The notes: generated by a model not told the origin, from the sequence alone. A stretch of 64,000 nucleotides of DNA from Minisyncoccota bacterium (GCA_041662525.1 JBAZSF010000002.1:90196-154195), one strand, 5' to 3'; numbered from the stretch's first letter, positions 19,141-48,516 are shown. Made by a program: numbers and translations.

Positions 19141-19241
19141 ATAGAAAGTTTTATAAAATCAAAGTTTTCTCAGGTCCTCGGTTCTCCGGGTCCCTATCCC
19201 GGCCAGACCATTCAAAAACTTTATTTTATAAAACTTTCTAT
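19141..19241 (+). repeat. repeat family 1, copy A: 41-nt conserved core (19174-19212) flanked by a ~28-bp locus-specific inverted repeat
   Basis: Core GGTCCTCGGTTCTCCGGGTCCCTATCCCGGCCAGACCATT. The arms atagaaagttttataaaat / attttataaaactttctat are perfect reverse complements. It sits between the divergent HIT and recJ starts. Confidence 0.7.
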
Positions 19242-19263
19242 ATTGTATGCTAAAATTGCATTT

Positions 19264-20940
19264 ATGCAAAGATATGGAGAATTATTGAGAGCACTTCTAG
19301 AAAAAAGGGGAGTTGTTAATGAAGCACAAACGGAAATCTTCCTTAATCCAGATTATGAACGAGATTTTCATGATCCTCTTTTAATGCGAGATATGGAAAA
19401 AGCTTGCGTCAGGATATATGAAGCGATAGAGAATAATGAAAAAATAATTATTTATGCAGATTATGATTGTGATGGGATTCCAGGAGCTGTTATTCTCACT
19501 GATTTGTTTGTCTTATTGGGATATAAAAATTATGAAATTTACATACCTCAAAGAAATTCTGAAGGTTATGGACTTAATCTTGAAGCGATTAAACAATTTG
19601 TAAAATCCAATGTTAAACTTTTAATTACTGTTGACCTTGGTATCACTGCAATCAAGGAAGTAGCTCAAGCAGAAGTAGATGGAATTGATGTGATAATAAT
19701 TGACCATCATTTACCTAAAGAAACATTACCCCGTGCTTATGCAATTTTAAATCCAAAGATAGATGAATATCCAGAAAAAATGCTTTGTGGGGCGGGTGTT
19801 GTTTTTAAATTTGTACAGGGGTTCATTGCTAAATATGGCAAAGGAAATAAGAATTTTGATATAAAAGATGGGCAGGAAAAATGGATGCTCGATATGGCGG
19901 GATTGGCGACACTTTCTGATATGGTGCCACTCGTGGGGGAGAATAGAGCTATCGCATATTTTGGAATGAAGGTATTAAAGAAGTCTCCTCGCCCAGGGTT
20001 GCAAAAACTTTTAGCAAAAATGAAGATTGAACAAAAGTATTTATCGGTTGATGATATCGGCTTTATGGTAACACCTAGATTGAATGCTGCCTCCCGAATG
20101 GATGACCCTATGCGAGCTTATGAGCTTCTTTCTACGAGAGATGAAGCGGAAGCAGGTGCGCTCTCAGACCATTTATCAAAAATAAATGATGAGAGAAAAA
20201 ATATTGTGAAAAGTATTATGCGCGACGTAAACAAACATTTGGATAAAAAATTTGAAAGTGGGAAAGAAGTAAATGTGATAGTGATAGGTAATCCAGAATG
20301 GAAGGTGGGAGTTTTGGGATTAGTGGCAGGAAAAATATCAGATAAATATAAAAAATCTGTTTTTGTGTGGGCGAAAGATGAGAATGATTGTATTAAAGGT
20401 TCTTGCCGAAGTGATGGATCTATCTCTGTCGTGGAGCTTATGAGTGAAAATAGTGAATCATTTGTAGATTTTGGTGGGCATGAACTCGCAGGAGGATTTA
20501 CTGTGCATGATGATAAAATTCATTTTTTAGAAGAAGTTTTGTCTCTTTCTTTTCATAAAGTAAAAAGAGATAAAAAAGAAGACGTTGTAAATTATGATAT
20601 CAAATCCGATTTGGGTATTGTGAATATAAAAAATTGGAAGGAAATAGAAAAGCTCGCGCCTTTTGGAATAGGAAATCCAAAACCAGTTTTTCTCTTTCCT
20701 GACGTCAAGATAGAAAAAATAAAAAAATTTGGCAAGAATGGATCTGGAGAACATTTAGAAATCATTTTTTCTGATTTGTCTAGCAATGCTACAGCTATTT
20801 CATTCTTTTCTGATTATGATTCTTTTGATGTGCCTCTCGCAGAAGACAAAAAGGTGAATCTTCTAGCTACTTTTGACTTATCTAGATTTAGAGGGAGAGA
20901 AGAGTTAAGATTAAGGATAGAGAATATATATGAGGGATGA
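19264..20940 (+). CDS. recJ: single-stranded-DNA-specific exonuclease RecJ
   Basis: DHH motifs (DYDCDG, IIIDHH) and a DHHA1 domain. The start is taken at MQRYGELL. The ORF-track upstream extension merely reads through the repeat. Confidence 0.85.
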   Translation: MQRYGELLRALLEKRGVVNEAQTEIFLNPDYERDFHDPLLMRDMEKACVRIYEAIENNEKIIIYADYDCDGIPGAVILTDLFVLLGYKNYEIYIPQRNSEGYGLNLEAIKQFVKSNVKLLITVDLGITAIKEVAQAEVDGIDVIIIDHHLPKETLPRAYAILNPKIDEYPEKMLCGAGVVFKFVQGFIAKYGKGNKNFDIKDGQEKWMLDMAGLATLSDMVPLVGENRAIAYFGMKVLKKSPRPGLQKLLAKMKIEQKYLSVDDIGFMVTPRLNAASRMDDPMRAYELLSTRDEAEAGALSDHLSKINDERKNIVKSIMRDVNKHLDKKFESGKEVNVIVIGNPEWKVGVLGLVAGKISDKYKKSVFVWAKDENDCIKGSCRSDGSISVVELMSENSESFVDFGGHELAGGFTVHDDKIHFLEEVLSLSFHKVKRDKKEDVVNYDIKSDLGIVNIKNWKEIEKLAPFGIGNPKPVFLFPDVKIEKIKKFGKNGSGEHLEIIFSDLSSNATAISFFSDYDSFDVPLAEDKKVNLLATFDLSRFRGREELRLRIENIYEG

Positions 20941-21418
20941 AATTATGAAAATTTACACAGATGGGGCGGCGAAGGGGAATCCTGGAAGGGCTGGGTGGGG
21001 AGCTGTTTTTATCATAATGGATAAAGTTTTTGAGATTGGTGGAGGGGTAGACCATGCAACAAACAATCAAATGGAATTAACTGGACCTATTGAGGCGTTG
21101 AAGTTTCTAGCTAGGCAAGGCCTAGCTGGGGATGATGTGGAAATTGTCTCTGATTCTAAATATGTAATTTTAGGAATTACAGAGTGGATTTTTAATTGGC
21201 AGAAAAATAATTGGCGAAATGCTAAAAAAGAGCCAGTTTTAAATCGTGTTCTTTGGGAGGAATTATATAAACTTGTCCAAGAGTTTACTTGTTTGCCAAA
21301 TAGGAAGGAAATAAAATGGACTTATGTGAAAGGACATAACGGAGATAAATACAACGAAAGAGCAGATGAAATAGCTACCAGTTTTGCGGAAGGGAATCCT
21401 GTAAAATTGAAAAAATAA
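20930..21418 (+). CDS. rnhA: ribonuclease HI
   Basis: TDGAAKGNPGRAGWGAV motif plus the ...E...D...H...D catalytic pattern. Confidence 0.85.
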   Translation: MRDEIMKIYTDGAAKGNPGRAGWGAVFIIMDKVFEIGGGVDHATNNQMELTGPIEALKFLARQGLAGDDVEIVSDSKYVILGITEWIFNWQKNNWRNAKKEPVLNRVLWEELYKLVQEFTCLPNRKEIKWTYVKGHNGDKYNERADEIATSFAEGNPVKLKK

Positions 21419-21427
21419 TTATTTTTA

Positions 21428-22915
21428 ATGCGCGATAGAGTTTTTTATACAATTTGTTTTGGTTTTTTATTTGGAGTGCTTTTGCGCTCTTTTGTTTTTA
21501 TAGATTTATATTTAATTATTTTATTTAGTGTAATTGCTAGCGCTTTATTTTTGTTTTTTACATTGATTGCAAAAAGTGATTGGGCCTACCTGCGCAGGCA
21601 GGGAATTTTATTTTCAATTTTTGTTTTAACTTTTTGTTTGGGTGTTTTTAGATTTAATATGGTTGATGTTTTTAATCCTGTTGTTTTTGAATCTCAAGTA
21701 AATCAAAAAGTAACTTTTTCAGGGGAAATTATTGATGAACCGAGCATTAAAGAAAATAATCAGCAATTAATAGTAGAAATACAAATCCCCGCCAAAACGA
21801 AAATTATTTTATCGACAAGATTAGATGCTGATTATAAATACGGAGATGAAATAAAGTTTTCTGGAAAATTAGAAAAGCCGGAGAATTTTATCACTAATCA
21901 AGGAAAAGAATTTGATTATATAAATTATTTGCGTAAAGACGGAATTTTGTATGTGATGAGTTATCCAAAAATTGAAATTATTTCACACGGGAACGGTAAT
22001 GCAATTCAAAGCATATTATTTGATGTTAAAGATAAATTTTTAGAAAAAATTAATTTTGCTATTCCTGCTCCTGAGAATCTACTGATGGGTGGGCTTATTT
22101 TGGGTGAAAAATCTTCTTTTAGTCAAGAGTTGAGAGAGAGTTTTGTGAATACTGGTACGATACATATCGTGGCCCTTTCTGGATACAACGTGACGATAAT
22201 TGCTGAATGGATTATGAAATTATTTGGATTTTTACCGAAAACTTTCGGTATTGGGATAGGAATTTTGGCAATATTTTTATTTATCATTATGACTGGTGGT
22301 AGCTCGACGGCTATTCGAGCGGGGATAATGGCGATTTTAGTATTGATAGCCCGCGCGACTGGAAGAAATTATGATGTCGCGCGGGCCCTTGTGCTTGCAG
22401 GGGTAGGGATGATTTTATTTAATCCTTTTCTGCTTGTTTATGATGTTTCTTTTCAGCTTTCTTTTCTGGCAACAATTGCTGTGATATTTATCGCGCCAAG
22501 AATTGAAAAATATTTTCTATGGGTACCGAAAACTTTTGAATTGCGAGACATAGTATCTGTCACTTGCGCTGCTTATTTTTTTGTTTTTCCATTTATTCTT
22601 TACAAAATGGGTAATTTTTCACTCGTGGCTTTGCCAGCTAATTTTTTAATTTTGCCTTTTATTCCTTTCACAATGATGCTCGGATTTATTACTGGTTTTC
22701 TAGGCCTTATTTATTATATATTGGCGGTACCAGTGGGGTATCTTTCCTATTTATTTTTGCATTATGAGCTCGGAGTAGTAAGTTTTTTCTCACATCTACC
22801 GTTTGCCGCTTTTGCTTTTCCTGATTTTTCATTTTGGCTAATAGTTCTAATTTACACCTATTTTATTTATAGACTTTTTGGCAGAAATATAAAAAGTTTT
22901 TTTAGAGAAAATTAA
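21428..22915 (+). CDS. comEC: ComEC/Rec2 DNA-uptake channel (DUF4131 + competence domain, no MBL domain)
   Basis: Polytopic membrane protein with the IHIVALSGYNVTII competence-domain motif. Confidence 0.75.
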   Translation: MRDRVFYTICFGFLFGVLLRSFVFIDLYLIILFSVIASALFLFFTLIAKSDWAYLRRQGILFSIFVLTFCLGVFRFNMVDVFNPVVFESQVNQKVTFSGEIIDEPSIKENNQQLIVEIQIPAKTKIILSTRLDADYKYGDEIKFSGKLEKPENFITNQGKEFDYINYLRKDGILYVMSYPKIEIISHGNGNAIQSILFDVKDKFLEKINFAIPAPENLLMGGLILGEKSSFSQELRESFVNTGTIHIVALSGYNVTIIAEWIMKLFGFLPKTFGIGIGILAIFLFIIMTGGSSTAIRAGIMAILVLIARATGRNYDVARALVLAGVGMILFNPFLLVYDVSFQLSFLATIAVIFIAPRIEKYFLWVPKTFELRDIVSVTCAAYFFVFPFILYKMGNFSLVALPANFLILPFIPFTMMLGFITGFLGLIYYILAVPVGYLSYLFLHYELGVVSFFSHLPFAAFAFPDFSFWLIVLIYTYFIYRLFGRNIKSFFREN

Positions 22916-22929
22916 AAAACTCGTTGAAG

Positions 22930-23030
22930 TCGTAACTTTTAAGAAACATTGCGCAGGCGGGTAGCCGAGCATAGCAAAAAATCAGCAGATTTTTATGCGT
23001 GTTGAGTAAAAGTTATGACGAGAAAGAGTT
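22930..23030. other. long imperfect hairpin between convergent genes (probable bidirectional terminator)
   Basis: gaagtcgtaactttta ... taaaagttatgacgag arms enclose ~65 nt. Confidence 0.35.
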
Positions 23031-23034
23031 TTCT

Positions 23035-23646
23035 CTATTGAGCCTTTTTAAAATTTTCTTCAATCACTTCCCAATTTAGATTTTCAAAAAATGCTTCTAC
23101 GTATTTTTTCTTTTCGGAAGTTGGGTAATCATAAATGAAAGCATGTTCCCACATATCAATACCGAGAATCCAGTCGAGTCCATTTAATTGTCCTAAATGA
23201 TGTTCATCTATCCAGGTGCTAATTAATTGTTTTGTTTCTTTATCATAATAAACTACTGCCCAGCCGACCCCGCGAGTCATCGCTAGGTTTTTAAAGTCAT
23301 CAAGCCACAAATTAAAAGATGGTGAATCTTTTTCGATGAATTTTTTTAATAAAGAATCCGAAGACAGTGTCTTTGCTCCGCCTTCTAGAGATCTGAAATA
23401 ATATTCATGGTTGCGCATACCATTAAATTCAAAACCGAACCTTCTGTGCAATTCTCCTATCACATAAACAACTCCTGGGATTAAGGGTTCCCCAATTTCG
23501 GATAATTTGGTATATTCTTCAAGTTTTTCTATAATCAGATTTGTGTTTTTTACATAACCAGCATAAAGTTTTAGATGTTCCTCAGTGTTTTTCAAAGAGA
23601 TACCTTTCAAGGTTTCGATATTAAATTTTTTTTCTTCAAATTTCAT
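23035..23646 (-). CDS. Fe/Mn superoxide dismutase
   Basis: NHEYYF and D-M-W-E-H-A motifs, with metal ligands present. Confidence 0.75.
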   Translation of the reverse strand: MKFEEKKFNIETLKGISLKNTEEHLKLYAGYVKNTNLIIEKLEEYTKLSEIGEPLIPGVVYVIGELHRRFGFEFNGMRNHEYYFRSLEGGAKTLSSDSLLKKFIEKDSPSFNLWLDDFKNLAMTRGVGWAVVYYDKETKQLISTWIDEHHLGQLNGLDWILGIDMWEHAFIYDYPTSEKKKYVEAFFENLNWEVIEENFKKAQ

Positions 23647-23664
23647 GTGTGTTAGTATTGTAAC

Positions 23665-24534
23665 ATGTCTAGAAATATCAAGCAGTATTGGCTGTTAATT
23701 TTTACATTTTTTCTTTTATTTACAACAGTTTTTCTATTTTATTTAGATTGGCAAAATACTTATCGTAGTTTTACTTTTGCTATGTTGGATGTCGGTCAAG
23801 GTGACGCGCTTTTTATAGAATCTCCGACAGGGACGCAGGTGATGTTTGATGGTGGTCCATCACGTAAAGTTTTAGGTCCACTCGCTCGGGTGATATCTCC
23901 ATTTGATAAAACTATTGATGCGTTGATAATTACTAATCCAGACGCTGACCACATCGGTGGGTTTATAGATATTTTAAAAAATTATAAAGTGGGTGCCGTC
24001 TTTGAGTCGGGTACTTTGACTGATTCTAAAATTTATCAGAATTTGACAGAAGAAATGAAGAGACAAAACATACCCGATGTTTTAGCTAGAAGGGGAATGA
24101 AGTTAGACCTTGGGGGCGGAGTAGTGATTGATATTTTATTTCCAGATAGAGATGTTTCTGAGTGGGCGACCAATGATGGGGGAGTAGTAGCACGACTTTC
24201 TCATGATAAAACATCCATAATGCTTACTGGCGATGCGAGCACAAAAACAGAACAAATAATTCTTTCAGAAAATTCTGAAGTGCAATTAAAAAGTACTATT
24301 TTAAAAATCGGACATCATGGTTCGCGGACCTCTTCCTCTCTAAGTTTTGTAAAAGCTGTTTCTCCAGAATACGCGCTTATTTCAAACAGTAAAGACAATA
24401 ACTATGGTCATCCACATCAAGAAACTTTAGATACATTAGTCAAATTTGGCGCAAATATTTTCCGTACTGATTTATTAGGTACAATAGTCATGAAATCTGA
24501 TGGTCAGAATGTCAATTTTTTATTCCACAAGTAG
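23665..24534 (+). CDS. membrane-anchored MBL-fold hydrolase (ComEC C-terminal-domain-like)
   Basis: N-terminal TM helix, then a metallo-beta-lactamase fold (VGQGDALFIE, NPDADHIGG, GHHGS) as found fused to ComEC in other bacteria. Confidence 0.7.
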   Translation: MSRNIKQYWLLIFTFFLLFTTVFLFYLDWQNTYRSFTFAMLDVGQGDALFIESPTGTQVMFDGGPSRKVLGPLARVISPFDKTIDALIITNPDADHIGGFIDILKNYKVGAVFESGTLTDSKIYQNLTEEMKRQNIPDVLARRGMKLDLGGGVVIDILFPDRDVSEWATNDGGVVARLSHDKTSIMLTGDASTKTEQIILSENSEVQLKSTILKIGHHGSRTSSSLSFVKAVSPEYALISNSKDNNYGHPHQETLDTLVKFGANIFRTDLLGTIVMKSDGQNVNFLFHK

Positions 24535-24562
24535 ACAAAAATAAATATGATATACTCATTTT

Positions 24563-25753
24563 ATGAAAGATAAAAAAATTGAGAGTCTTATTAAAAATGA
24601 AACGAAGAGGCAAAAAAGTGTAATTAATCTTATACCTTCAGAGAATTATGTTTCCAAAGACGTTTTGACGGCTCTTGGTTCTATTTTTGATAACAAATAT
24701 GCTGAAGGATATCCGTATGCTCGATATTATGGAGGACAGAGATATACAGATGAGCTGGAGACTCTTTGCCAAGATCGAGCCCGAAAACTTTTCAAATTAA
24801 AAAAAGATTTATGGCATGTGAATGTTCAGCCACTTTCAGGATCACCAGCAAATTTAGCTGTGTATTTAGCGCTTGTACCACAAGGTGGCAAGATTATGGG
24901 ACTACCTCTTTCTTCTGGCGGACATTTGACTCATGGTCAGAAAGTTTCTATCACTGGTAAGGTGTGGGAGCAAGTGCCTATTAGTTTAGATTTAAAAACT
25001 GAACTTATTGATTATAAAAAAATGAAAGAGGATGCGATTAGAGAAAAGCCGAAGCTAATAATTGTTGGTTTTACTGCATATCCTAGAATTGTTGATTTTA
25101 AAAAATGTCGTGAAGCAGCTGATGCTTGCGGAGCGTACCTTATGGTGGACATGTCTCATTTTGCCGGATTGGTAGCGGGTGAAGCTTATCCAACACCTTT
25201 TGAATATGCAGACGTTGTGACCACCACTACCCACAAGACTCTTCGTGGTCCCCGAGGTGCAATTATCTTTTCTAGAAAAGATAGAAAAGTAGGAGATAAA
25301 GATATTTCAGTTTTGATTGATAAGGCCATCTTTCCAGGCATACAGGGAGGTCCGCATATGGGGCAGATTGCAGGTATTGCTGTCGCGCTCAAAGAAGATG
25401 ATTCACCTGCGTTTAAAAAATATGCAAAACAAATTCTCAATAATGCGAAAGCACTAGCTCTTGAACTTAGCCATTTGGGTTGGAGGATTGTTTCTGGCGG
25501 GACAGAGTCGCATCTTATTTTGGTGGATACTTGGATGGATGGAAAAGGTATCTCCGGAAAAGAAGCCGAGGCCAAGCTAGAAAAAGCTGGGATTATTTGT
25601 AATAAAAATACTATTCCGGGTGAGACTCGTTCACCATTTGACCCTTCTGGTATTCGCATAGGCACACCAGCTGAGACTACTTTAGGTAAAAAGGAAAAAG
25701 ACATGATAGCGATTGCGAGAAAAATAGACAAGGTTTTGAAAGGGAAGAAATAA
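24563..25753 (+). CDS. glyA: serine hydroxymethyltransferase
   Basis: TTTTHKTLRGPRG PLP-lysine motif. Confidence 0.9.
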   Translation: MKDKKIESLIKNETKRQKSVINLIPSENYVSKDVLTALGSIFDNKYAEGYPYARYYGGQRYTDELETLCQDRARKLFKLKKDLWHVNVQPLSGSPANLAVYLALVPQGGKIMGLPLSSGGHLTHGQKVSITGKVWEQVPISLDLKTELIDYKKMKEDAIREKPKLIIVGFTAYPRIVDFKKCREAADACGAYLMVDMSHFAGLVAGEAYPTPFEYADVVTTTTHKTLRGPRGAIIFSRKDRKVGDKDISVLIDKAIFPGIQGGPHMGQIAGIAVALKEDDSPAFKKYAKQILNNAKALALELSHLGWRIVSGGTESHLILVDTWMDGKGISGKEAEAKLEKAGIICNKNTIPGETRSPFDPSGIRIGTPAETTLGKKEKDMIAIARKIDKVLKGKK

Positions 25754-25808
25754 AATAATATTTTTCAAACAATTTTTCATTTTGCCCTTTTTCTGTTATA
25801 TTTTCTAT

Positions 25809-26513: not shown

Positions 26514-26514
26514 A

Positions 26515-26940: not shown

Positions 26941-26987
26941 CGCCACGCTTTAGTGGACGATTGCGCGGCATGATTTCGTAAAATCAT

Positions 26988-31029: not shown

Positions 31030-34000
31030 ATGGCCAAAGAAATTCAGGAAGAAGAAAATAAAAGCGAAGCGGCTTTGCGGGAAGAGCGGATTTTAGAATT
31101 TTGGAAAGAAAATAAAACTTTTGAAAAAACTTTAAAACAAACGGAGGGCAAAAAAGAATTTATTTTTTACGAAGGTCCGCCGACAGCGAATGGCAAGCCA
31201 GGCATTCATCATTTAGAAGCGCGAGCATTCAAAGACGCAATTCCTAGGTATAAAACAATGCAGGGTTTCCATGTTCGTCGAAAGGGTGGATGGGATACAC
31301 ATGGGCTTCCCGTTGAGCTTCAGGTAGAAAAAAAGCTAGGGCTTAATTCTAAAAAAGCTATCGAAGAATATGGTATTGCGAAATTTAATCAAGAATGCAA
31401 AGAAAGCGTCTGGGAGTATTTAGATATTTGGAATAAATTTACTCATCGTATTGGATATTGGGTGGATCAAGAGAACCCGTATGTGACATATCACAACGAT
31501 TATATTGAATCTGTTTGGAATGTTGTTAAAGCAATAAATAAACAAAATTTACTTTATAAAGATTATAAAGTGGTGCCTTGGTGTCCTAGGTGTGGTACAG
31601 CTTTGTCCTCTCATGAACTTGCGCAGGGTTATGAAGATGTGAAAGATTTGTCTGTGTATGTGAAGTTTAAGGTTCGTTCTGTCCCCGAAAGATTTTCTCA
31701 GGTCCTCGGAACTCCCTCTCCCTATCCCGGCCAGACCATTCAAAAACCTTCCGGGGACTTTACTTATATTCTTGCTTGGACGACAACTCCGTGGACACTT
31801 CCTGGGAATGTAGCATTGGCAGTAGGAGAAAATATTATTTATGTAAAAATAGAAAAACCTGCCTCGACGCAAGGCGGGGGAAAAGAATTTTTAATTTTAG
31901 CAAAAGAAAGACTTTCTATTTTAGAAGGGGAATATAAAATAATTGAAGAATTTATAGGCAAAGATTTAATTGGATTGGAATACGAGCCTCTTTATCCATA
32001 TCTTGCTGACACAATTTCTGAAAGTGAAAAACCTAAATTAGAAAAAGCTTTCAAGGTTTATGGAGCGGATTTTGTAACGACAGAAGACGGTACAGGGGTA
32101 GTGCATACGGCAGTGATGTACGGACAGGATGACTTTGAGCTTGGTACAAAGGTTGGTTTGCCAAAGCATCATATTGTCGGTCTAGATGGAAAATTTTTAC
32201 CGGGTACTGGAATATTTGAAGGTAGATTTGTGAGAGATGAAGACGTGGCGGTAGATGTGATAAAAGATTTAGCGCATAGAGGAAATGGAGGGCTTTTATT
32301 TAAAAAAGAAAAATACGAGCATTCCTATCCGCATTGTTGGAGATGCAAAACGGCACTTATTTATTACGCTCGAGATTCTTGGTATATAAAAGTCTCTGAT
32401 CCTAAAATAAAAGAAAGAATGATAGCCGAGAACAAAGAAGTAAATTGGGAACCAGCACATATTCGGGATGGGCGTTTTGGTGAATGGTTAAGGGAGATAA
32501 AAGATTGGGCGATTTCTCGTGAGCGATATTGGGGTACACCTTTGCCTGTTTGGATTTGTGAATCTTGCAAGAAGATTGACGTCATCGGGAGCATTGAAGA
32601 TTTAAAAAATAAAACTAAAAAATTTGGCAATAAATATTTTGTAATGAGACATGGTGAAGCAGAAAATAATGCTCTTTGTATTTATTCTTCCAATCAAAAA
32701 ATAAATCATTTGACAAAGCTCGGACAAACGGAAGTTGAAAAGACATCCCAAGTTCTTTTGAACAAAAAAATTACCAAGATTTATTGCTCGCCCTTTTTAA
32801 GAACACGAGAAACTGCCGAAATCGTTGCAGAGCAGATAAATTTCCCTAAAGATAGAATTATTTACGATGATAGAATTCGAGAATTAGAATTTGGAGATTT
32901 TTCTGATTGTAGAGAGGAGGATTTTTGGGATTTTATAAAAAATAAAGATTGGGGATTTGATACAGTTGTCCCTGGAGGGGAGAGCCACCAAAATGCAAAG
33001 AATCGAATGGGAGATTTTCTTTATGAAATTGATCAAAAAAATAAAGATGAAACGATTTTAATTATTTCGCATGGATTAGCAATAGAAATGATTCCAGCTA
33101 TTATTGAAGGAGCAGATAAAAAGCGTTCACTCGAAATTTTCCATTCACATATATGCGACAAACCAGCTTCATTGCACAAAGAACATGAATTTGTTTTTCT
33201 TCCCCATAACGCAGACTATGAACTTGATTTACATAAACCTTTTATAGATGAAGTTAATCTGATGTGCACCCATTCTACTGGCAGAGGGCAAGTATGTGGG
33301 GGAAAATTAACTCGCACTCGCGAGGTGATGGATGTCTGGTTTGATTCTGGATGTATGCCATTTGCGCAAGATCATTATCCCTTCGATTTCTCTCAGGGCA
33401 AGCCTTTTGAGGAGACCGAAATTTTATACCCTGCAGATTTTATTTCGGAAGCAATAGATCAGACTCGTGGATGGTTTTATACTTTGCATGCTGTTGGAAT
33501 ACTTATGGGGCGAGGGAAAGCATATAAAAATGTAATTTGTCTTGGACATTTACTCGATTCCAAAGGTAAAAAAATGTCTAAATCTCTTGGTAATATTGTC
33601 GACCCTTGGGAGATGATAGAAAAATACGGAGTGGATACATTGAGACTCTGGATGTATTCAGTCAATCAACCTGGAGAATCTAAAAATTTTGATGAAAAAA
33701 CTGTCGCTCTTCTCCACCAACAAGTTTTTGGTTTGCTTTATAATGTGCTCGCTTTCTATGAGCTTTATCGAGATAATTCTATCAATGCCCATTCGACAAG
33801 CTCAGGACAAATATCAAGTACTAACGTTCTTGATATTTGGATTTTAGCACGGCTAGATGAATTGATTAGCGAATCCACAAAAAAAATGGATAATTATAAA
33901 TTGCTTGAACCAGTGCGAGCGATAAAGGATTTTATTGGGGACCTTTCTACTTGGTATTTGCGTCGTTCACGTGAGCGGATAAAGAATGGAGATAGGCAAG

Positions 34001-34629
34001 CGAAAGAAACTCTGTATTATGTATTAAAAACTCTTGTAAAACTTCTAGCACCTTTTGCCCCCTTTACAGCTGAAGATATTTGGATGAAATTAAAAACAGA
34101 AAAAGATGAAGAAAGTGTGCATTTGGCTGAGTGGCCCCTCGCTTCTGCTCGGGGCCTTCAGCCCAAGATTTTAGAGAATATGCAAAAAACAAGAGATATT
34201 GTGACTTTAGGACTTGAAGCTCGTCAAAAGGCTGGAATAAAAATCAGGCAACCTTTGCAATCTTTTTCTTTTGAATCAACAGATTTAGACGAATACAGCA
34301 ATCTTATCAAAGATGAGCTTAATGTAAAAGAGATCATACATGGTGACCTTATGCTTGATACAAATATTACTTCAGAATTAAAACAAGAAGGGGATTGTCG
34401 TGAGCTTATACGTGCCTTACAAGATATGCGTAAAAATCAGGGACTAACACCGAGCGATGCTATTTCAATTGTTTTTGAAACAAATGATAATGGTAAAAAA
34501 TTAATTGAAAAATTTGAAAATGATTTGAAAAAAACTGTGCTAGTTTCTGAAATAAAATATCGTGAAAATGATGGACAGGAAATAAGAATAGACGAATTTG
34601 CTTTTAAAGTGAAAATTAGTAAAATATAA
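31030..34629 (+). CDS. ileS: isoleucine--tRNA ligase carrying two insertions (repeat-encoded loop and a histidine-phosphatase domain)
   Basis: PGIHHLEA (HIGH-like), WTTTPWTLP, WAISRERYWGTPLP, DVWFDSG and KMSKS motifs. At 1199 aa it is ~200 aa longer than typical bacterial IleS. Confidence 0.9.
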   Translation: MAKEIQEEENKSEAALREERILEFWKENKTFEKTLKQTEGKKEFIFYEGPPTANGKPGIHHLEARAFKDAIPRYKTMQGFHVRRKGGWDTHGLPVELQVEKKLGLNSKKAIEEYGIAKFNQECKESVWEYLDIWNKFTHRIGYWVDQENPYVTYHNDYIESVWNVVKAINKQNLLYKDYKVVPWCPRCGTALSSHELAQGYEDVKDLSVYVKFKVRSVPERFSQVLGTPSPYPGQTIQKPSGDFTYILAWTTTPWTLPGNVALAVGENIIYVKIEKPASTQGGGKEFLILAKERLSILEGEYKIIEEFIGKDLIGLEYEPLYPYLADTISESEKPKLEKAFKVYGADFVTTEDGTGVVHTAVMYGQDDFELGTKVGLPKHHIVGLDGKFLPGTGIFEGRFVRDEDVAVDVIKDLAHRGNGGLLFKKEKYEHSYPHCWRCKTALIYYARDSWYIKVSDPKIKERMIAENKEVNWEPAHIRDGRFGEWLREIKDWAISRERYWGTPLPVWICESCKKIDVIGSIEDLKNKTKKFGNKYFVMRHGEAENNALCIYSSNQKINHLTKLGQTEVEKTSQVLLNKKITKIYCSPFLRTRETAEIVAEQINFPKDRIIYDDRIRELEFGDFSDCREEDFWDFIKNKDWGFDTVVPGGESHQNAKNRMGDFLYEIDQKNKDETILIISHGLAIEMIPAIIEGADKKRSLEIFHSHICDKPASLHKEHEFVFLPHNADYELDLHKPFIDEVNLMCTHSTGRGQVCGGKLTRTREVMDVWFDSGCMPFAQDHYPFDFSQGKPFEETEILYPADFISEAIDQTRGWFYTLHAVGILMGRGKAYKNVICLGHLLDSKGKKMSKSLGNIVDPWEMIEKYGVDTLRLWMYSVNQPGESKNFDEKTVALLHQQVFGLLYNVLAFYELYRDNSINAHSTSSGQISSTNVLDIWILARLDELISESTKKMDNYKLLEPVRAIKDFIGDLSTWYLRRSRERIKNGDRQAKETLYYVLKTLVKLLAPFAPFTAEDIWMKLKTEKDEESVHLAEWPLASARGLQPKILENMQKTRDIVTLGLEARQKAGIKIRQPLQSFSFESTDLDEYSNLIKDELNVKEIIHGDLMLDTNITSELKQEGDCRELIRALQDMRKNQGLTPSDAISIVFETNDNGKKLIEKFENDLKKTVLVSEIKYRENDGQEIRIDEFAFKVKISKI
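31681..31758 (+). repeat. repeat family 1, copy B (core 31701-31740), inserted in-frame in ileS
   Basis: Core GGTCCTCGGAACTCCCTCTCCCTATCCCGGCCAGACCATT flanked by gtccccgaaag / cttccggggac inverted arms. It encodes PERFSQVLGTPSPYPGQTIQKPSGD in a variable loop before the editing domain. Confidence 0.65.
32600..33230 (+). other. histidine-phosphatase (PGM/SixA/PhoE-like) domain inserted within ileS
   Basis: FVMRHGEAENN (RHG motif), SPFLRTRETAEIV and LIISHGLAI (second catalytic His). It lies between the WG(T/V)PLP and DVWFDSG blocks, where normal IleS has only ~60 aa. Confidence 0.55.
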
Positions 34630-35851: not shown

Positions 35852-35858
35852 AAAATTT

Positions 35859-39648: not shown

Positions 39649-39663
39649 GTGTCTAAAAAGTAA

Positions 39664-39725
39664 GAAAGCCCTTCCGTAAGAAGGGCTTTTATGATGAACG
39701 GGATAAATATTATCCCGATTTTTTG
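39664..39725 (+). terminator. two tandem terminator hairpins
   Basis: aaagcccttc-cgta-agaagggcttt and cgggataaatattatcccg followed by atttttt. Confidence 0.7.
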
Positions 39726-39900: not shown

Positions 39901-40001
39901 AAGATAAGAAAACAACATCTAAATAAAAAATTAGCATATTGAAGACAAAAGTCAAGAAAGCGTTATTTTTATAAATAATTTTTTGTGTTAGAATAGATTT
40001 T

Positions 40002-41270: not shown

Positions 41271-41358
41271 GCAGTTTTTTAAATTGATTGACTATTTTAA
41301 AGAATAGAGTAGATTAAAAAAAGAGAAAAAAATTGAAACTTGAAAAGGGGGTAAAAAA

Positions 41359-41829: not shown

Positions 41830-41877
41830 GGCCGAAGGAAGAGCTGAAGCTCCTCCTTCGGCCCTTTCTTATTTTTA
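41829..41877 (+). terminator. rho-independent terminator
   Basis: gggccgaaggaag-agctgaagc-tcctccttcggccc followed by a T run. Confidence 0.85.
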
Positions 41878-41901
41878 TAAATTTTATGCTATGATATTTT
41901 T

Positions 41902-42984: not shown

Positions 42985-44444
42985 ACAAAAATAGTTTTTA
43001 CATCACGACGACGATACCCTATGTGAATGCTGATCCTCACATTGGTTTTGCACTCGAACTTGTGCAAGCTGATGCTGTTGCGAGATGTCAGCGTCTCATT
43101 GGTAGGGATGTTTTTTTTAGCACTGGTACTGATGAATATGGTCAGAAAATTTGGGAAGCAAGTGAAAAACAAGGTAAAAAAGTTCAAGACTACGTAGATT
43201 ATTACGCGCAGAAATTTTTAGATTTAAAAAATACTCTCAATCTTTCCTATGATAATTTTATTCGAACTACTAGTAAAGAAAATATCACAGCCGCACAAGA
43301 ATTTTGGCTCCTATGCGATAAAAAGGGAGATATTTATAAAGCAAAATATATAGGACTTTACTGTGTGGGGTGTGAGACTTTTTATACCGAAAAAGATTTA
43401 GTAGAAGAAAAGTGCCCGATACATTTGACTGTGCCAGAGAAAATAGAAGAAGAAAATTATTTTTTTAAATTGAGTAATTACAAAAAACAACTTCTTTTAT
43501 ATTTATCTAATGAAAAAGCGATCTTGCCAGAATGGAGACGCAAAGAAGCAATTTTTTTTGTAGAAAATGCAATGGAAGATTTTTCTATTTCTCGCAGTAA
43601 AAAGCGTGTTTCGTGGGGGATACCTATTCCCGGGGATGATGAACAAGTCATGTATGTTTGGTTTGGTGCTTTTGTAAATTATATTTCAACCTTAGGCTGG
43701 CCCTTCGCTTCTACTCAGGATCTCCGACCAGAAACAAAAGAAAATTTATTTGAAAAATTTTGGGAAAAAGGGGAAAAGATCCAAATGGCTGGTAAAGATA
43801 TGGTGAAGTTTCAATCAGTAATGTGGCAAGGCATGCTCATGTCCGCAGGACTCCCCAATACAGATACTATTGTTTATCATGGGTTTATAACTGGCGATGG
43901 AGGAATTAAAATGTCTAAGTCTTTGGGTAATGTGATTAACCCAAATGATATTGTAAAAGAATATAGCGCAGATGCGTTACGTTATTTTCTTTTGCGTGAG
44001 ATTTCTCCTTTTGAAGACAGTCCGTTTACCATGGAAAGGTTTAAGGAAGCATACAATGCGGGTCTAGCAAATGGATTAGGAAATTTAGCTTCAAGAATAT
44101 TAACTCTTTCAGAAAAATATTTACCCGAGTGTCCGGAAATAAGAGAGGAAATGGATCTAACAGAATTTTTTAGTTTTTTTGAAAAATTTGATGTTAAACA
44201 AGCTGTTGATTTCATTTGGAACGAGATAGGTGAATTAGATAAATTTATTCAGGAAACAGAACCATTTAAGGTGGTAAAAGTTGATGAAGAAAAAGGAAAA
44301 GAATTAATTTCTAATATGGTTGTTCGTCTGTATAAAATTGCCAGGATGTTAAATCCAATAATGCCAGAAACAAACATTATTCTCAAAAAATTAATTAAAG
44401 AAAACAAAAAACCAGACCAGCCATTATTTTTAAGAAAAGAATAA
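42981..44444 (+). CDS. metG: methionine--tRNA ligase (short form)
   Basis: PHIGF (HIGH variant) and KMSKS motifs. Confidence 0.9.
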   Translation: MNKNSFYITTTIPYVNADPHIGFALELVQADAVARCQRLIGRDVFFSTGTDEYGQKIWEASEKQGKKVQDYVDYYAQKFLDLKNTLNLSYDNFIRTTSKENITAAQEFWLLCDKKGDIYKAKYIGLYCVGCETFYTEKDLVEEKCPIHLTVPEKIEEENYFFKLSNYKKQLLLYLSNEKAILPEWRRKEAIFFVENAMEDFSISRSKKRVSWGIPIPGDDEQVMYVWFGAFVNYISTLGWPFASTQDLRPETKENLFEKFWEKGEKIQMAGKDMVKFQSVMWQGMLMSAGLPNTDTIVYHGFITGDGGIKMSKSLGNVINPNDIVKEYSADALRYFLLREISPFEDSPFTMERFKEAYNAGLANGLGNLASRILTLSEKYLPECPEIREEMDLTEFFSFFEKFDVKQAVDFIWNEIGELDKFIQETEPFKVVKVDEEKGKELISNMVVRLYKIARMLNPIMPETNIILKKLIKENKKPDQPLFLRKE

Positions 44445-44445
44445 A

Positions 44446-45297
44446 ATGACTCCCAAATACATAGACATACATTCACATTTAAATTTTAAGGCTTTTAATG
44501 ATGATAGAGATGAGGTTATTAAACATGCCTTAGATAATGATACTTGGGTGATAAATGTAGGAAGCCAGTTTAGCACTTCAAAAAGAGCAGTGGAAATTGC
44601 TAATAAATATTCCGAGGGAGTTTTTGCTATCGTTGGTCTACATCCGATTCATCTTGAAGAATCTTATCACGATGATGAAGAATTTAGTGGTTTAGGTTTT
44701 AAAACAAGAGTTGAAGAATTTGATAAAGATGTTTATAGAGAACTTTTGAAAGATCCAAAGGTAGTAGCGATAGGGGAATGTGGTTTGGATTATTTTCATT
44801 GTAGTTTAGAGACAATAGAAAAACAGAAAAAAACTTTTAGAGAGCACGTTTCTTTGTCTCAAGAAACTGGGAAGCCACTCATGTTGCATGTTAGAAATGG
44901 TTCGACAAGCTCACCACAAGTAATTCCAAAACTAAACGCGTATCAAGATGTTTTAGAAATTTTAAAAGAATTTACTGGGGTAAGGGGAAATGTACATTTT
45001 TTTGCTGGAACCTGGGAAGACGCCAAAGCATTTTTAGATTTTGGTTTTACCTTATCTTTTACTGGAGTTATTACTTTTACGCATGATTATGATGAAGTTA
45101 TTAGAAATATACCACTTGATATGATCATGTCGGAGACTGATTCTCCTTATGTAGCGCCCATTCCGCACAGAGGAAAGCGCAATGAACCTGTCTACGTAAG
45201 AGAAATAGTTAAAAAAATCGCTGAAATTAAAAATTTACCAGAACAGGAAGTGGCAGAGGCAATTGTCGCAAATGCCAAGCGAGTCTTTACTTTTTAA
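44446..45297 (+). CDS. tatD: TatD-family metal-dependent DNase/hydrolase
   Basis: IDIHSHLNF and GECGLDY motifs. Confidence 0.85.
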   Translation: MTPKYIDIHSHLNFKAFNDDRDEVIKHALDNDTWVINVGSQFSTSKRAVEIANKYSEGVFAIVGLHPIHLEESYHDDEEFSGLGFKTRVEEFDKDVYRELLKDPKVVAIGECGLDYFHCSLETIEKQKKTFREHVSLSQETGKPLMLHVRNGSTSSPQVIPKLNAYQDVLEILKEFTGVRGNVHFFAGTWEDAKAFLDFGFTLSFTGVITFTHDYDEVIRNIPLDMIMSETDSPYVAPIPHRGKRNEPVYVREIVKKIAEIKNLPEQEVAEAIVANAKRVFTF

Positions 45298-45312
45298 AGA
45301 GTTTTTGATAGT

Positions 45313-45816
45313 ATGAAACCTATGCAAGAAGTAGAAAATGAAATATTAGAAGAAGGAAATTCTAAGGTTTATGAGCTTGGTTACCATTTGGTGCCGACAC
45401 TTTCCGAAGAAGACGTACCAGTTACTTTTGGTAATTTAAAAGAGCTTATTTCATCATTGGATGGCATCTTCATTTCTGAAGAAATGCCTAAAATGATGAC
45501 ACTTGCTTACCCTATGGTTAAAGTTATAGCCAATTTACGTAATAAATTTAAAAGTGCATATTTTGGTTGGATCAAGTTTACAATGGATTCAGATAAAGTT
45601 CTTAAATTAAAAAAGAAGCTTGATCTTGATCCTAATTTTGTTCGATTTTTGATATTGAAAACAGTTAAAGAAAATACTGTCAACACAAAAAGATTTACTC
45701 GTGGAGAATTTACAAATAGAAAAACAAAGATAGATAAGAGTAGGGAAGATGAAGCATCTGCTCCTATAAATAAAGAAGAAATTGATAAAGAGATAGATGC
45801 ATTAATTTCGGTTTAA
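45313..45816 (+). CDS. rpsF: ribosomal protein S6 (extended C-terminus)
   Basis: YELGYHLVP...MMTLAYPM pattern. It sits in the classic rpsF-ssb-rpsR arrangement. Confidence 0.7.
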   Translation: MKPMQEVENEILEEGNSKVYELGYHLVPTLSEEDVPVTFGNLKELISSLDGIFISEEMPKMMTLAYPMVKVIANLRNKFKSAYFGWIKFTMDSDKVLKLKKKLDLDPNFVRFLILKTVKENTVNTKRFTRGEFTNRKTKIDKSREDEASAPINKEEIDKEIDALISV

Positions 45817-45826
45817 TAAAAAATAT

Positions 45827-46285
45827 ATGTATTTAAATAAAGCAATATTAATAGGAAATCTTACACGTGATCCAGAACTCCGTTCACTACCTTCAGGTAT
45901 AAAAGTTTGCACATTTTCTATTGCCACTAATCGTGTTTGGAAAGATAAAAATGGCGCACGTCAGGAATCAGCTGATTATCACAATATAGTAGTTTTTGGA
46001 CGCCAAGCAGAGACAGTTGCTCAATATATGAAAAAAGGAAGTTCTATATTGATTGAAGGTAGGATGCAGACCAGAAGTTGGGAAGATAAAACAAGTGGGG
46101 AGAAAAAATATCGTACGGAAATAGTCGCTGATCGTACACAATTTGGTCCTAAGGGAGGAAATACAGGTGGAGGAATGAGCACAACGAGTACTGGTTCAAA
46201 GGCTCCAGCATCAGAAGGGGGTGGAGAAATTGATTCTATAGAATATCCAGAAGAAGACATTAATCCAGAAGACATACCATTTTAA
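45827..46285 (+). CDS. ssb: single-stranded DNA-binding protein
   Basis: OB fold and acidic C-terminal tail ending in DIPF. Confidence 0.85.
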   Translation: MYLNKAILIGNLTRDPELRSLPSGIKVCTFSIATNRVWKDKNGARQESADYHNIVVFGRQAETVAQYMKKGSSILIEGRMQTRSWEDKTSGEKKYRTEIVADRTQFGPKGGNTGGGMSTTSTGSKAPASEGGGEIDSIEYPEEDINPEDIPF

Positions 46286-46295
46286 TAATTTAACA

Positions 46296-46362
46296 CAGGC
46301 GCTAGGCGCTAGGCATTAGCAATTAAAAAAGCTAGAGCCTAAAGCCTAAGGCCTAAAGCCTA
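46296..46362 (+). repeat. intergenic hexamer repeats forming an imperfect hairpin (ggcgctaggcgctaggc ... gcctaaagcctaaggcctaaagcctag)
   Basis: Direct repeats of ggcgct/aggc and agccta/aggcct are mutually reverse-complementary. They lie between ssb and rpsR. Confidence 0.5.
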
Positions 46363-46366
46363 GAAT

Positions 46367-46567
46367 ATGAAACAAGATTATTTTTCAACTAATAATATAA
46401 AATACATAGATTACAAGGATATTGAAATTCTAAAGAAATTTTTAAATCCTAATGGTAAGATAATGAACCACAAGCGGACTGGAGTTACCGCTAAGAATCA
46501 ACGCCAATTAACCACAGCCATCAAGCGTGCTAGATTTATGGGTTTGCTTCCGTTTGTAATTAAATAA
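46367..46567 (+). CDS. rpsR: ribosomal protein S18
   Basis: Conserved S18 core (YIDYKD...RTGV...QR.L..AIKRAR). Confidence 0.85.
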
Positions 46568-46580
46568 AAAAGATAAAATA

Positions 46581-46608
46581 AAAAATCCCCGAAAGGGGAT
46601 TTTTTATT
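46581..46608. terminator. bidirectional terminator
   Basis: aaaaatcccc-gaaa-ggggattttt lies between convergent rpsR and efp. Confidence 0.8.
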
Positions 46609-47187
46609 TTAAACTCTCTCTACATATTCTCCTGTTTCCGTATTTACTCGGATAATGTCTCCCTCGTTGATGAACATCGGAGTAGTGAGGGTGGCACCGT
46701 TTTCTAAAGTGATAACTTTATTGCCTCCTTTAGAAGTGTCTCCACGGACAGCTGGAGGGGCTTCTTTAACTTTAAATTCCATTTTGATAGGTAAGGTTAT
46801 TTTTATTATTACTTCTTCATCATCATTGTCCCAGATTAAGGCAGTTACATTTCCATTTTGTTTAAAGAATTTGGCAGTATTTCCAACAAGGTTCTCATCT
46901 AATTTAAATCTATTGCTTTTATCATTTGGGTCACAGAACCAATATTCGCCTTTATTATGATAAAGAAAAGTAATGTCTCTCTTAATAATATCCGCTTCCT
47001 CGGCTGATTCAGCTGCATGAAAAGTAGCAGGGAAGACCTTGCCAGATATTAAACTTCTTAGTTTAACCTGATTTTGTGGTTTGCGTTGTTGGGTACGAGC
47101 AACGTGAGATTCTATCACTTCGCAGGGTTCATCATTATGTATAATTATTTTCTTTTCGCGAATGTCGCTGTATTCTAATTTAGCCAT
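46609..47187 (-). CDS. efp: elongation factor P
   Basis: The N-terminal KOW domain aligns with EF-P, and OB domains follow. Confidence 0.85.
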   Translation of the reverse strand: MAKLEYSDIREKKIIIHNDEPCEVIESHVARTQQRKPQNQVKLRSLISGKVFPATFHAAESAEEADIIKRDITFLYHNKGEYWFCDPNDKSNRFKLDENLVGNTAKFFKQNGNVTALIWDNDDEEVIIKITLPIKMEFKVKEAPPAVRGDTSKGGNKVITLENGATLTTPMFINEGDIIRVNTETGEYVERV

Positions 47188-47239
47188 AGGTAATATACTA
47201 GCAGAAAAATTTATTAAATCAAATTAAAAAACCTTGGAT

Positions 47240-47328
47240 ATAACTTTTCGAAAGGGTTTCGAGGCTGTCGAGCCGAGAATTTCAGGAATTTTTAAGCTTC
47301 AAAAATTCCGTACTGGAGAAAAGTTTAT
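47240..47328 (+). repeat. ~90-bp repeat family 2, copy 2
   Basis: aacttttcgaaagggtttcgaggctgtcgagccgagaatttcaggaatttttaagcttcaaaaattccgtactggagaaaagttt is ~85% identical to the reverse complement of 12855-12948. Confidence 0.6.
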
Positions 47329-47346
47329 ATCCAAAGTTTTTTTTAA

Positions 47347-48420
47347 TTATGCTTCCTCTGCAAACTTCTTCTTAATCTCTTTCAAAATTTGTTCAGAAAT
47401 TTTCTTTTCTTCTTTCAAGAATTTTCGAGTAGAATCATAACCAACACCAAGCTTTACTTTTTCCTTTGCCTCGCCAGAGCCTTTGGCGGAGGCGGGTGCT
47501 TTTTCATTAGCTGATGTATAAAAATATGAATTCCCACTTTTTTCTATAATTTTAAATTTCTCTCCGAGTGCCATTATTTCACCTTCTTTAGAAATTCCTT
47601 CATTGTAAATGATGTCAAATTCCGTTTGTTTGAATGGAGCAGCTACTTTATTTTTGACAACTTTGACACGAGTACGGGAACCCACCACTTCTTCTCCCTT
47701 TTTTATTTGAGCGATTTTTCGAATATCAAGTCGAATAGAGGTATAAAATTTCAAGGCTTTTCCTCCAGGGGTAGTTTCTGGATTACCAAACATTACGCCG
47801 ATTTGCATGCGAATTTGATTTATAAAGATAACAACAGTTTTGGATCTAGAAACTATAGCAGTCAGCTTACGGAGGGCTTGAGACATTAGGCGTGCTTGTT
47901 TACCGACATGGTATGCTCCCATATCACCTTCGATTTCGTCTTTCGGGGTGAGGGCAGCTACGGAGTCTATTACGATAACATCAATCTTTCCGGTTCGTAC
48001 CAAGCTCTCTACGATTTCTAGCGCTTGCTCTCCATTGTCTGGTTGAGAAATAAGCAAGTCATTTATATTTACGCCAAGTTTTTTTGTATAATCTGGATCC
48101 ATCGCGTGTTCGGCATCAATATAGGCACACACTCCTCCTTTTTTTTGTGCTTCAGCGACGATATGGAGAGAGAGGGTAGTCTTGCCCGAAGATTCTGGAC
48201 CAAAGATTTCTATAATTCTTCCACGTGGTATTCCACCCACACCGAGCGCCATATCAAGGCCGATAGAACCAGTCGGTATGACATTGATATCTACTTTGGG
48301 TGAATTACCAAATTTCATTATTGAACCTTCTCCAAATTTTGTTTGAATAGCTTTTAAGGTATCTTCCAATACCGCTTCTCCCACTGTTTTATCTTCCTTT
48401 TTTTCTTTTTTCTTAATCAT
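47347..48420 (-). CDS. recA: recombinase RecA
   Basis: [10 protein letters not shown] Walker A and full RecA core. Confidence 0.95.
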
Positions 48421-48436
48421 TTTTTTTCATTTACTT

Positions 48437-48516
48437 AAATAATTTTACTTTTTGAAATGGTCTGGCTGGGATAGGGACCCAGAGAACCGAGGACCTTTCA
48501 AAAAGAAAAATTATTT
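48437..48516 (-). repeat. repeat family 1, copy C (core 48457-48495, minus orientation), ~25-60 bp upstream of the recA start
   Basis: Minus-strand core GGTCCTCGGTTCTCTGGGTCCCTATCCCAGCCAGACCATT with locus-specific arms aaataattttactttttgaaa / tttcaaaaagaaaaattattt. The ctggg/cccag hairpin is a compensatory variant of copy A's ccggg/cccgg. Confidence 0.65.

Follow-up and report, generated by a model that had tools for sequence, protein, structure and literature searches.

The window analyzed here is a stretch of 64,000 nt from Minisyncoccota bacterium (GCA_041662525.1, JBAZSF010000002.1:90196-154195) with a G+C content of ∼35%. It carries three copies of a hairpin element built around a conserved 40-nt core: copy A upstream of recJ, copy B within ileS, and copy C upstream of recA. 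A degenerate pattern for the core matched at 19173-19212 (+), 31701-31740 (+), and 48456-48495 (−), and gave 0 matches in 100 shuffles of the window. A covariance model run with its filters off found exactly three copies in the window, scoring 91 (A), 81.6 (C), and 67.2 (B) bits; its next-best match, at 15.9 bits, was taken as noise. Both methods recover the three core copies listed in the initial annotation of this DNA. Inverted arms of 30, 16, and 29 nt surround copies A, B, and C, respectively, giving whole hairpins of 78 to 105 nt, and the folding of whole units compared with shuffles yielded z scores of −10.2 (A), −2.0 (B, a modest value), and −9.4 (C).

Copy A (whole hairpin, 19139-19243, + strand) has arms at 19139-19168 and 19214-19243; its conserved center, as delimited by the model match, spans 19161-19224. 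It occupies the entire divergent spacer between a HIT-family gene (18748-19140, −), whose start codon abuts the left arm, and recJ (19264-20940, +), which encodes a protein with DHH, DHHA1, and RecJ_OB domains. Judging from the length of RecJ in relatives (553 to 560 amino acids [aa]), the true recJ start is most likely the in-frame ATG at 19264, which gives a protein of 558 aa; copy A is sense to recJ and ends 20 nt before this ATG. A longer open reading frame (ORF) of 617 aa, beginning with TTG at 19087, only reads through copy A into recJ, and the same is seen in a relative (L039). Gene callers could thus report a false N-terminal extension of RecJ, and in these genomes hairpin elements whose frames are open pose a risk to annotation.

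Copy C (48429-48524, −; arms 48429-48457 and 48496-48524) lies between a small Glucodextran_B-like gene (48511-48867, −; 118 aa), whose stop codon falls within the left arm, and recA (47347-48420, −). It is sense to recA and ends 8 nt from the recA ATG at 48420; the earlier placement of copies A and C upstream of, and sense to, the two recombination genes therefore holds. In relatives, copies of the element often flank the small gene (114 to 136 aa; located between ftsK and recA) on its two sides (L014, L027, L028, L077, L078, and L089). Where the element lies downstream of it, the last codons and the stop of the gene fall in an element arm, so that the element rewrites the C terminus of the protein.

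Copy B (31681-31758, +; arms 31681-31696 and 31743-31758) is located in frame inside ileS (31030-34629, +), where it covers codons ∼218 to 243 and encodes the peptide VPERFSQVLGTPSPYPGQTIQKPSGD. Its apical stem is atypical, with CCCTC in place of CCGGG. In a structure model of IleS, residues 218 to 241 form a coil with a predicted local distance difference test (pLDDT) value of <50, between strands at residues 208 to 215 and 244 to 251. The model is compatible with a tolerated loop, although it weighs little because other segments are poorly modeled too (mean pLDDT, 65.5). IleS of this lineage has another peculiarity: a histidine-phosphatase domain (His_Phos_1, PF00300, with an RHGE motif) at roughly residues 530 to 720 splits the class I synthetase domain. 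This insert is present in 120 of 120 listed relatives, some of which have an HD domain in addition.

An exact scan for 20 specified core bases, using one genome per species, identified 60 loci in 42 assemblies, nearly all labeled Candidatus Nomurabacteria, Paceibacterota, or Patescibacteria. The scanned loci contain 64 canonical copies, at 1 to 7 per metagenome-assembled genome (MAG), and all 64 are flanked by inverted arms; applied to the same loci, the covariance model found 78 copies, about a dozen of them diverged. Rfam has no family matching the whole window at gathering thresholds, and for copy A it returned only generic microRNA-hairpin noise at E ≤ 10. Literature searches on palindromic, hairpin, or in-frame elements of the candidate phyla radiation (CPR), Patescibacteria, or Nomurabacteria returned no matching element. 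These searches are in line with the view, expressed at the outset, that the element had not been described.

We tested the proposed structure on a 67-sequence alignment of the core ± 12 nt: 95.9% of cells were paired, compared with 33 to 60% in slid controls, and changes on both sides were seen in seven of eight arm pairs. The covariation first noted between two copies (CCGGG/CCCGG versus CTGGG/CCCAG) turned out to be general. Of 66 distinct copies, 41 have C-G as the apical pair, 22 have U-A, one has U-G, and two are unpaired there; the C-G and U-A states both occur within orthologous groups.

Information content is high for ∼9 to 11 nt on either side of the core (cTTTTTcTCA ... CnAAAAAg) and falls to background beyond. 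Read from the outside in, the base of the hairpin consists of the inner arm cTTTTTcTCA, a GGTC/GACC helix, a CTC/A bulge, and a GG/CC helix, and is closed by ATTCnAAAAAg; it is asymmetric, with the internal loop CTCA/ATTCn. The apical hairpin is usually CCGGG-TCCCTAT-CCCGG. In subfamilies found with the model, this tip is swapped for unrelated hairpins or deleted, while the base (inner arms, GGTCCTCGG ... CCAGACC) is kept; the minimal, apex-less form is GGTCCTCGGaaaaaatCCCCAGACC. Since subfamilies retain the base and change or lose the tip, the conserved module is the asymmetric hairpin base. Five of the six frames of the core are free of stops and, as read from the sequence, encode Gly/Pro/Ser/Arg-rich peptides. 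We also considered a tRNA- or transfer-messenger RNA-like minihelix (5-bp stem, 7-nt loop, CCAGACC-A) and rejected it: ARAGORN was negative in the window, the TCCCTAT loop does not fit the T-loop consensus, and the element can do without its apex.

The arms behave differently from the center. The inner ∼10 nt of the arm on each side is conserved in all copies, and in orthologous copies the inner arm plus base is 92% identical; the outer arms of the same copies are only 43 to 52% identical, close to the 41 to 47% of 4-fold degenerate third positions, yet are still paired. The initial annotation described the arms as locus specific, and it is correct that they differ between loci. They are not purely so: a related arm, cttcgcCGGtAATGCTTTTTcTCA, is common to the nonorthologous UvrD sites 1 and 2, a recA-upstream group, L027, and ileS of L063. 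At the recA junction, relatives with ∼87 to 93% RecA identity bear at least three unrelated arm types, none of which is present in empty alleles. We therefore ruled out, at UvrD site 1, ileS, and the recA spacer, that the arms are target-derived inverted duplications or preexisting palindromes, because arm sequence is missing from the empty alleles, arms are common to unrelated loci, and one identical junction has three arm types. The arms arrive with the element and drift while staying complementary. Instead of an element that targets or creates palindromes and has locus-specific arms, as first suggested, the comparisons support one whose arms travel with it.

Both empty and occupied alleles were found at every site examined. 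At UvrD site 1, empty alleles measure 57 to 66 nt and occupied alleles 123 to 132 nt; at ksgA, the corresponding values are 57 to 63 and 120 nt. For ileS, the closest empty allele (L061, syntenic, IleS 80% identical) is 72 nt shorter than the occupied one (81 versus 153 nt), which bears out the in-frame insertion claimed for copy B. The spacer upstream of recA was compared in 80 RecA relatives taken from metagenomes: it measures ∼5 to 15 nt when empty and ∼100 nt when occupied, and the element family is adjacent to recA in only ∼8 of the 80. In empty junctions (L065, L068, L072, L076, L080, and L096), only a few nucleotides (at most ∼10) separate the small gene's stop codon from the recA ATG; other relatives carry the element family, its apical variants, or quite different hairpin elements there. 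UvrD site 2, ksgA, and the ileS site are occupied by the element in one orientation or the other, by decayed copies (L031 and L062), or by GC-rich hairpins of at least two further families. Neither of the two empty ksgA alleles is plain. There is a short GC palindrome (ctccccc-ttcg-aggggga) in L025 and a tandem repeat (aacctaga acctaga acctataa) in L007, which may be footprints or independent small events at a hotspot.

The core can also be flipped. It occurs in both orientations between homologous arms, in different species, at six sites: ksgA, UvrD site 2, the CCA-adding enzyme gene, ileS, and upstream of recJ and of recA. An alignment of the recJ spacer illustrates this, with the core of the syntenic relative L012 reverse-complemented within the same arms and flanks as in the window and L039. 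The common orientation relative to recA and recJ, to which the initial annotation attached weight, is therefore not conserved. Template switching at quasipalindromes is known to invert sequence between short inverted repeats and to correct imperfect palindromes toward perfect ones (PMC7202029); the covariation of the arms may thus be largely mechanistic.

Mismatches and folding energies distinguish the two strands. On the strand in which the core was originally written, arm mismatches are of the A:C or C:A type 41 times and of the G:T or T:G type 14 times (p = 4e-4); restricting the tally to sense copies leaves 36 and 12. In 77 of 84 copies, the more stable fold is that of the complementary strand (−42.5 versus −37.7 kcal/mol), and its internal loop reads nGAAU/UGAG, which by its sequence could form tandem G·A pairs. 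About three-quarters of the copies are sense to their gene, so the better hairpin lies on the strand antisense to most mRNAs. This asymmetry counts against selection on mRNA structure and favors a single-stranded-DNA hairpin.

Seventy-seven copies could be placed relative to genes: 34 lie in coding sequences (CDS) in sense orientation, 11 in CDS in antisense orientation, and 32 in intergenic regions (∼58% in CDS). At least 13 protein families act as hosts; the genes are those for CCA-adding enzyme, TsaD, TGT, SMC, MnmA, a class V aminotransferase, a glycerate-kinase-like protein, UvrC (two sites), UvrA, UvrD (two sites), KsgA, and IleS. Intergenic copies neighbor recA, recJ/HIT, holB/dus, L31/RF, RF/ABC, comEC/RNase H, ftsK, PNPase, dUTPase/argS, ftsX, ATP synthase, MetAP, and EF-P genes. 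All 32 of the spanning ORFs analyzed are in frame through the element, with three phases used in the plus orientation and two in the minus; that the stop-containing frame is never used is as expected, because the scan kept only open frames. We saw no positive evidence for intron-like excision from mRNA, a question that a frame scan limited to open frames cannot address.

Taken together, these data suggest that the element is probably a short (∼80 to 105 bp), nonautonomous, noncoding mobile hairpin family restricted to one Candidatus Nomurabacteria/Paceibacterota lineage, similar in kind to Rickettsia palindromic elements (RPEs), repetitive extragenic palindromic (REP) sequences, and GC clusters. 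It is one of several hairpin families that share insertion hotspots and undergo fast gain, decay, loss, and replacement. Empty and occupied alleles, along with in-frame hosts, agree with the suggestion in the initial annotation of a miniature mobile element that inserts in frame in the manner of RPEs.

The mobilizing mechanism that we infer would have the element move as a single-stranded-DNA hairpin, the folded strand being the complement of the written core and hence antisense to most host genes. A structure-specific enzyme acting in trans would recognize the asymmetric base. HUH/Y1-type transposases would be the obvious candidate class; genes of this kind, with REP hairpins of their own, are present, so the enzyme class is available in these genomes. 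Intramolecular template switching or recombination between the arms would maintain their complementarity and invert the core, in which case mechanism rather than selection may explain much of the covariation between arms. The element would be tolerated in proteins because five of its six frames are open and encode flexible Gly/Pro/Ser/Arg-rich peptides, and the positions upstream of recA and recJ would be permissive spacers rather than regulatory sites.

Several observations weigh against mobility of this kind. No consistent direct repeat or target-site duplication was seen at four empty/occupied comparisons, where a 2- to 3-bp duplication could be missed because the compared genomes are 7 to 20% diverged, and no target motif was recognized at UvrD site 1, ileS, or the recA spacer. 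We found no transposase or other enzyme linked to the element. Nor did we find near-identical genomes differing by a single copy, as a very recent insertion would produce; the case for mobility thus draws on comparisons at 80 to 93% protein identity. The mismatch counts include orthologous, nonindependent copies, and antisense copies are too few to separate an element-intrinsic from a gene-strand effect. Core positions 19 to 38 were fixed by the scan pattern, so their invariance is in part a product of ascertainment. Finally, 1 to 7 canonical copies per MAG are few for a selfish repeat, and yet 42 species share an identical stretch of 20 nt; this combination could equally fit a host function that needs few copies.

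The initial annotation had offered another possibility, namely that the element is a cis-regulatory RNA or a DNA operator of a recombination and repair regulon that includes recA and recJ. Copies A and C do lie in sense orientation 8 to 20 nt upstream of the recA and recJ starts, the site upstream of recA is occupied in many genomes found through the core, and DNA-maintenance genes (UvrA, UvrC, UvrD, SMC, recA, and recJ) are somewhat over-represented among hosts and neighbors. The last signal is weak: rough binomial p values range, depending on the assumed background, from 0.003 to 0.08 for host genes and from 0.03 to 0.17 for spacers, and the excess is inseparable from the effects of how long the genes are and of which genes these small genomes contain. 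Against a regulon, the recA spacer is empty in many close relatives, with the family there in only the ∼8 of 80 mentioned above; the core is inverted upstream of recJ in L012; most copies (∼58%) sit within CDS of unrelated genes; and mismatches on the mRNA strand are not of the wobble type. Orientation is not conserved at recA and recJ, and no Rfam family matches. At copies A and C, neither promoter-like signals nor intrinsic terminators rise above shuffles, and the T-run lies inside the stem beside the core rather than after it. Other genes of the window, those for RecO, PIF1, SSB, RNase H, ComEC, TatD, and FtsK, have no copy. The empty recA spacers, the lack of promoter or terminator signals, and these copy-less genes led us to reject a recombination and repair regulon, which we consider extremely unlikely.

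A function for the host could take other forms: the element may be a structured site under purifying selection, present in few copies, that binds a chromosome-organizing or replication protein or acts as an RNA-processing or stability signal, with insertion only as its origin. Few copies and a base module extremely conserved in 42 species would suit such a role, as would the motif-like logic of a conserved asymmetric internal loop and bulge beneath a covarying, replaceable apex, and the consistently better folding of one strand with its potential tandem G·A pairs. We nevertheless think it unlikely, because close relatives have empty alleles at every site examined, some copies are decayed, unrelated hairpin families use the same sites, orientation flips, we found no rule for where copies lie relative to genes, and a designed site is difficult to reconcile with insertions in essential proteins. 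Also doubtful, to a similar degree, is a palindrome that spreads or is homogenized without a dedicated enzyme, template switching or gene conversion copying cores between dispersed hairpins. This would account for the hotspots, the swapping of cores, and the different cores found at the same sites; an inner CTTTT...AAAAG microhomology is common to all hairpin families; flips and arm symmetrization are known outcomes of template switching (PMC7202029); and no enzyme is linked to the element. What it leaves unexplained is the identity across species of a specific asymmetric base module and the colonization, with new arms, of empty spacers that contain no palindrome. Intragenic invertons, known in other bacteria, are in-frame segments between inverted repeats that occur in both orientations with the frame kept (10.1101/2023.03.11.532203), and a programmed inverton could switch the loop peptide (for example, between SQVLGSPGPYPGQTI and ENGLAGIGTRRTEDL) and so give a population diversified essential enzymes. 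In KsgA, UvrD (site 2), the CCA-adding enzyme, and IleS, the core does occur in both orientations at the same codon position, between homologous arms and with an open frame, and five of the six frames are free of stops. However, invertons flip within a population, through a dedicated invertase acting at defined sites, whereas the element flips only between species and never within one assembly; its arms vary by locus and hence offer no common recombinase site; no invertase gene was seen near copies; and empty alleles show that the proteins work without the loop. We judge a programmed inverton to be very unlikely.

An extension of the mobile-hairpin interpretation, which we advance only tentatively and think unlikely, is that the base is the recognition site of an uncharacterized CPR system for mobilizing single-stranded-DNA hairpins, distinct from pairs of REPs and REP-associated tyrosine transposases (RAYTs), and that it doubles as a natural intragenic switch. 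On the better-folding strand, the base reads TTTTT-nGAAT-GGTC-T-GG...CC-GAG-GACC-TGAG-AAAAA. The switch would follow from the center flipping between the arms with the frame kept open; if so, populations would gain two alternative surface loops in such essential enzymes as IleS, UvrD, KsgA, and the CCA-adding enzyme.

Among known systems, RPEs offer a close parallel in mode of life. They are short palindromic repeats of several families, many of them inserted in frame in unrelated housekeeping genes (PMC10969869). Like the element, they are noncoding palindromes of a reduced genome that are tolerated as in-frame peptides or lie between genes, and no transposase is known for them (PMC10969869). 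The in-frame insertion into unrelated genes that characterizes RPEs is seen here too, with 45 of 77 copies in CDS and empty alleles showing an added loop. RPEs differ in belonging to Alphaproteobacteria rather than CPR, in length (∼100 to 150 bp, compared with 80 to 105 bp), and in being far more numerous per genome; a conserved center, fast-drifting arms, a swappable apex, flips at fixed sites, and shared codon-level hotspots may also set the element apart. The analogy is one of lifestyle only, and we do not claim membership.

REP/REPIN sequences and their RAYTs share with the element imperfect hairpins, conserved bulges and tetranucleotides, strand-asymmetric folding, and probably a single-stranded DNA form (PMC3733652). 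REPs are 20 to 40 bp long, extragenic, and high in copy number, have a conserved stem, and cluster around the RAYT gene. The element, by contrast, has arms as its least conserved part, is 80 to 105 bp long, low in copy number, and ∼58% intragenic, carries no GTAG/CGTC tag, and does not flank a RAYT gene. Single-strand transposition of the IS200/IS605 type (PATE-like) involves strand-specific hairpin recognition, neither terminal inverted repeats nor a target duplication, and insertion 3' of a fixed tetra- or pentanucleotide. For the element, a strand asymmetry is present and no duplication was seen; however, its conserved tetranucleotides, CTCA/ATTC, are located within the arms, and we recognized neither a fixed target motif nor an accompanying TnpA.

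GC-rich hairpin cores in AT-rich, compact genomes are also known from mitochondria, as yeast GC clusters (GC42) and sponge hairpin elements (PMC4478555, PMC2800124). Structural constraint, covariation, rapid gain and loss, and merger or shuffling of modules have been described for them, with mobilization debated or unknown (PMC4478555, PMC2800124). The element is bacterial rather than organellar; it has long AT-rich inverted arms and a conserved asymmetric base, and lacks a visible counterpart of the putative AG target-site duplication of GC42. [quoted passage not shown] With units of 78 to 105 bp, the element is well within the usual MITE limit of <∼500 bp. MITEs, however, have target-site duplications and conserved terminal inverted repeats matching those of a parent insertion sequence (IS), whereas the termini of the element are its most variable part, with a related arm shared by only some loci; no parent IS was seen in ∼1 Mb of loci.

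The window does encode one HUH protein of the Y1/IS200-like kind (219 aa, 57473-58132), which scores 26.4 bits against Pfam Y1_Tnp (cutoff, 23) and has a distant NCBIfam match to RAYT. This RAYT-like unit (57335-58155) contains four copies of a 21-nt palindrome, TTCGGACGT-CCA-ACGTCCGAA (TTCGGACGTCCAACGTCCGAA). Three of these, at 57335, 57433, and 58135, bracket the gene; the fourth, at 57652, is in frame inside it, with extra arms of 11 bp (57641-57683) and its loop flipped to TGG. Homologues in L013, L072, L079, L081, and L097 are each flanked by a different palindrome of their own, while none was detected flanking that of L076. These are REP/RAYT-like pairs, and none of the units, in the window or in the six relatives, has the element core. 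We rejected the window gene as mobilizer of the element because it is flanked by a different REP. Literature searches found no report of RAYT-like systems in CPR.

Other hairpin families accompany the element. Two hairpins of another family lie in the window at 47226-47342 and 51111-51256, with arms of 23 and 27 nt, branched centers of 71 and 92 nt, and z scores of −6 and −10.6, respectively; their cores resemble gagcaaattttcagcaggaaatt, as in UvrD and KsgA inserts of other species. The first is directly downstream of recA which, with copy C upstream, is therefore flanked by two hairpin families. A second in-frame family, with a ∼65-nt GC-rich two-hairpin core (GGGGTCTCTCGCAGGCGGACGCGCCGAGAGGGAGCGCTGTGCGAGCACGCACAGACAGCGACCCC) that encodes ...GSLS.SADGALPLGSSACETPR..., occupies the same codon-level sites as the element: UvrD site 2 in L018, L025, L046, L052, and L038, and IleS in P0009, P0030, P0033, P0046, P0055, and P0057. 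A third (...VLERTLGRSDGNGQRKFSAENFRGES...) is found in UvrD, at both sites, and in KsgA.

The usual description of CPR/Patescibacteria genomes is one of streamlining and little mobile DNA. In the genomes studied here, several hairpin families repeatedly colonize a few permissive places, namely short spacers and the surface loops of essential proteins, where they alter protein lengths, C termini, and apparent start codons (the false 617-aa recJ ORF is an example). For annotation, the element accounts for large length variation among CPR orthologs. In evolutionary terms, its notable features are a conserved center, arms that drift yet stay paired, swappable tips, in-frame flips, and hotspots used by multiple families. 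As to mechanism, the ∼60-nt invariant module provides a handle for finding the enzyme or factor that recognizes it. The case also carries a caution: covariation in a long stem beside repair genes can come from palindrome dynamics at the DNA level and not from a regulatory RNA.

Two further candidates were dismissed. Carriage by phages was one: the 44 pattern matches in viral contigs are at chance level, with model scores of ≤21 bits. The other was an analogy to DNA-uptake sequences, prompted by the apparent bias toward genome-maintenance genes; 1 to 7 copies per genome is orders of magnitude too low for it, and the gene bias is weak. A census of host proteins based on the encoded 35-aa peptide, a query too short for significance, returned nothing in a word-index search and one match in an exhaustive search. 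The sole significant match of the 35-aa read-through peptide among 1.8 billion representatives is P0121, a protein of 126 aa that is 85% identical over residues 82 to 107; presumably, this protein represents one more ORF that crosses an element copy. Lastly, a few contigs carrying the element bear unexpected taxonomic labels: L019 (JACPNO010000035) is labeled Candidatus Solibacter usitatus, and L007, L015, L037, L047, and L048 are labeled Saccharibacteria. All six combine the element with Nomurabacteria-like genes, and UvrD on such contigs is ∼70% identical to the others; these labels probably reflect mis-binning or coarse automatic taxonomy.

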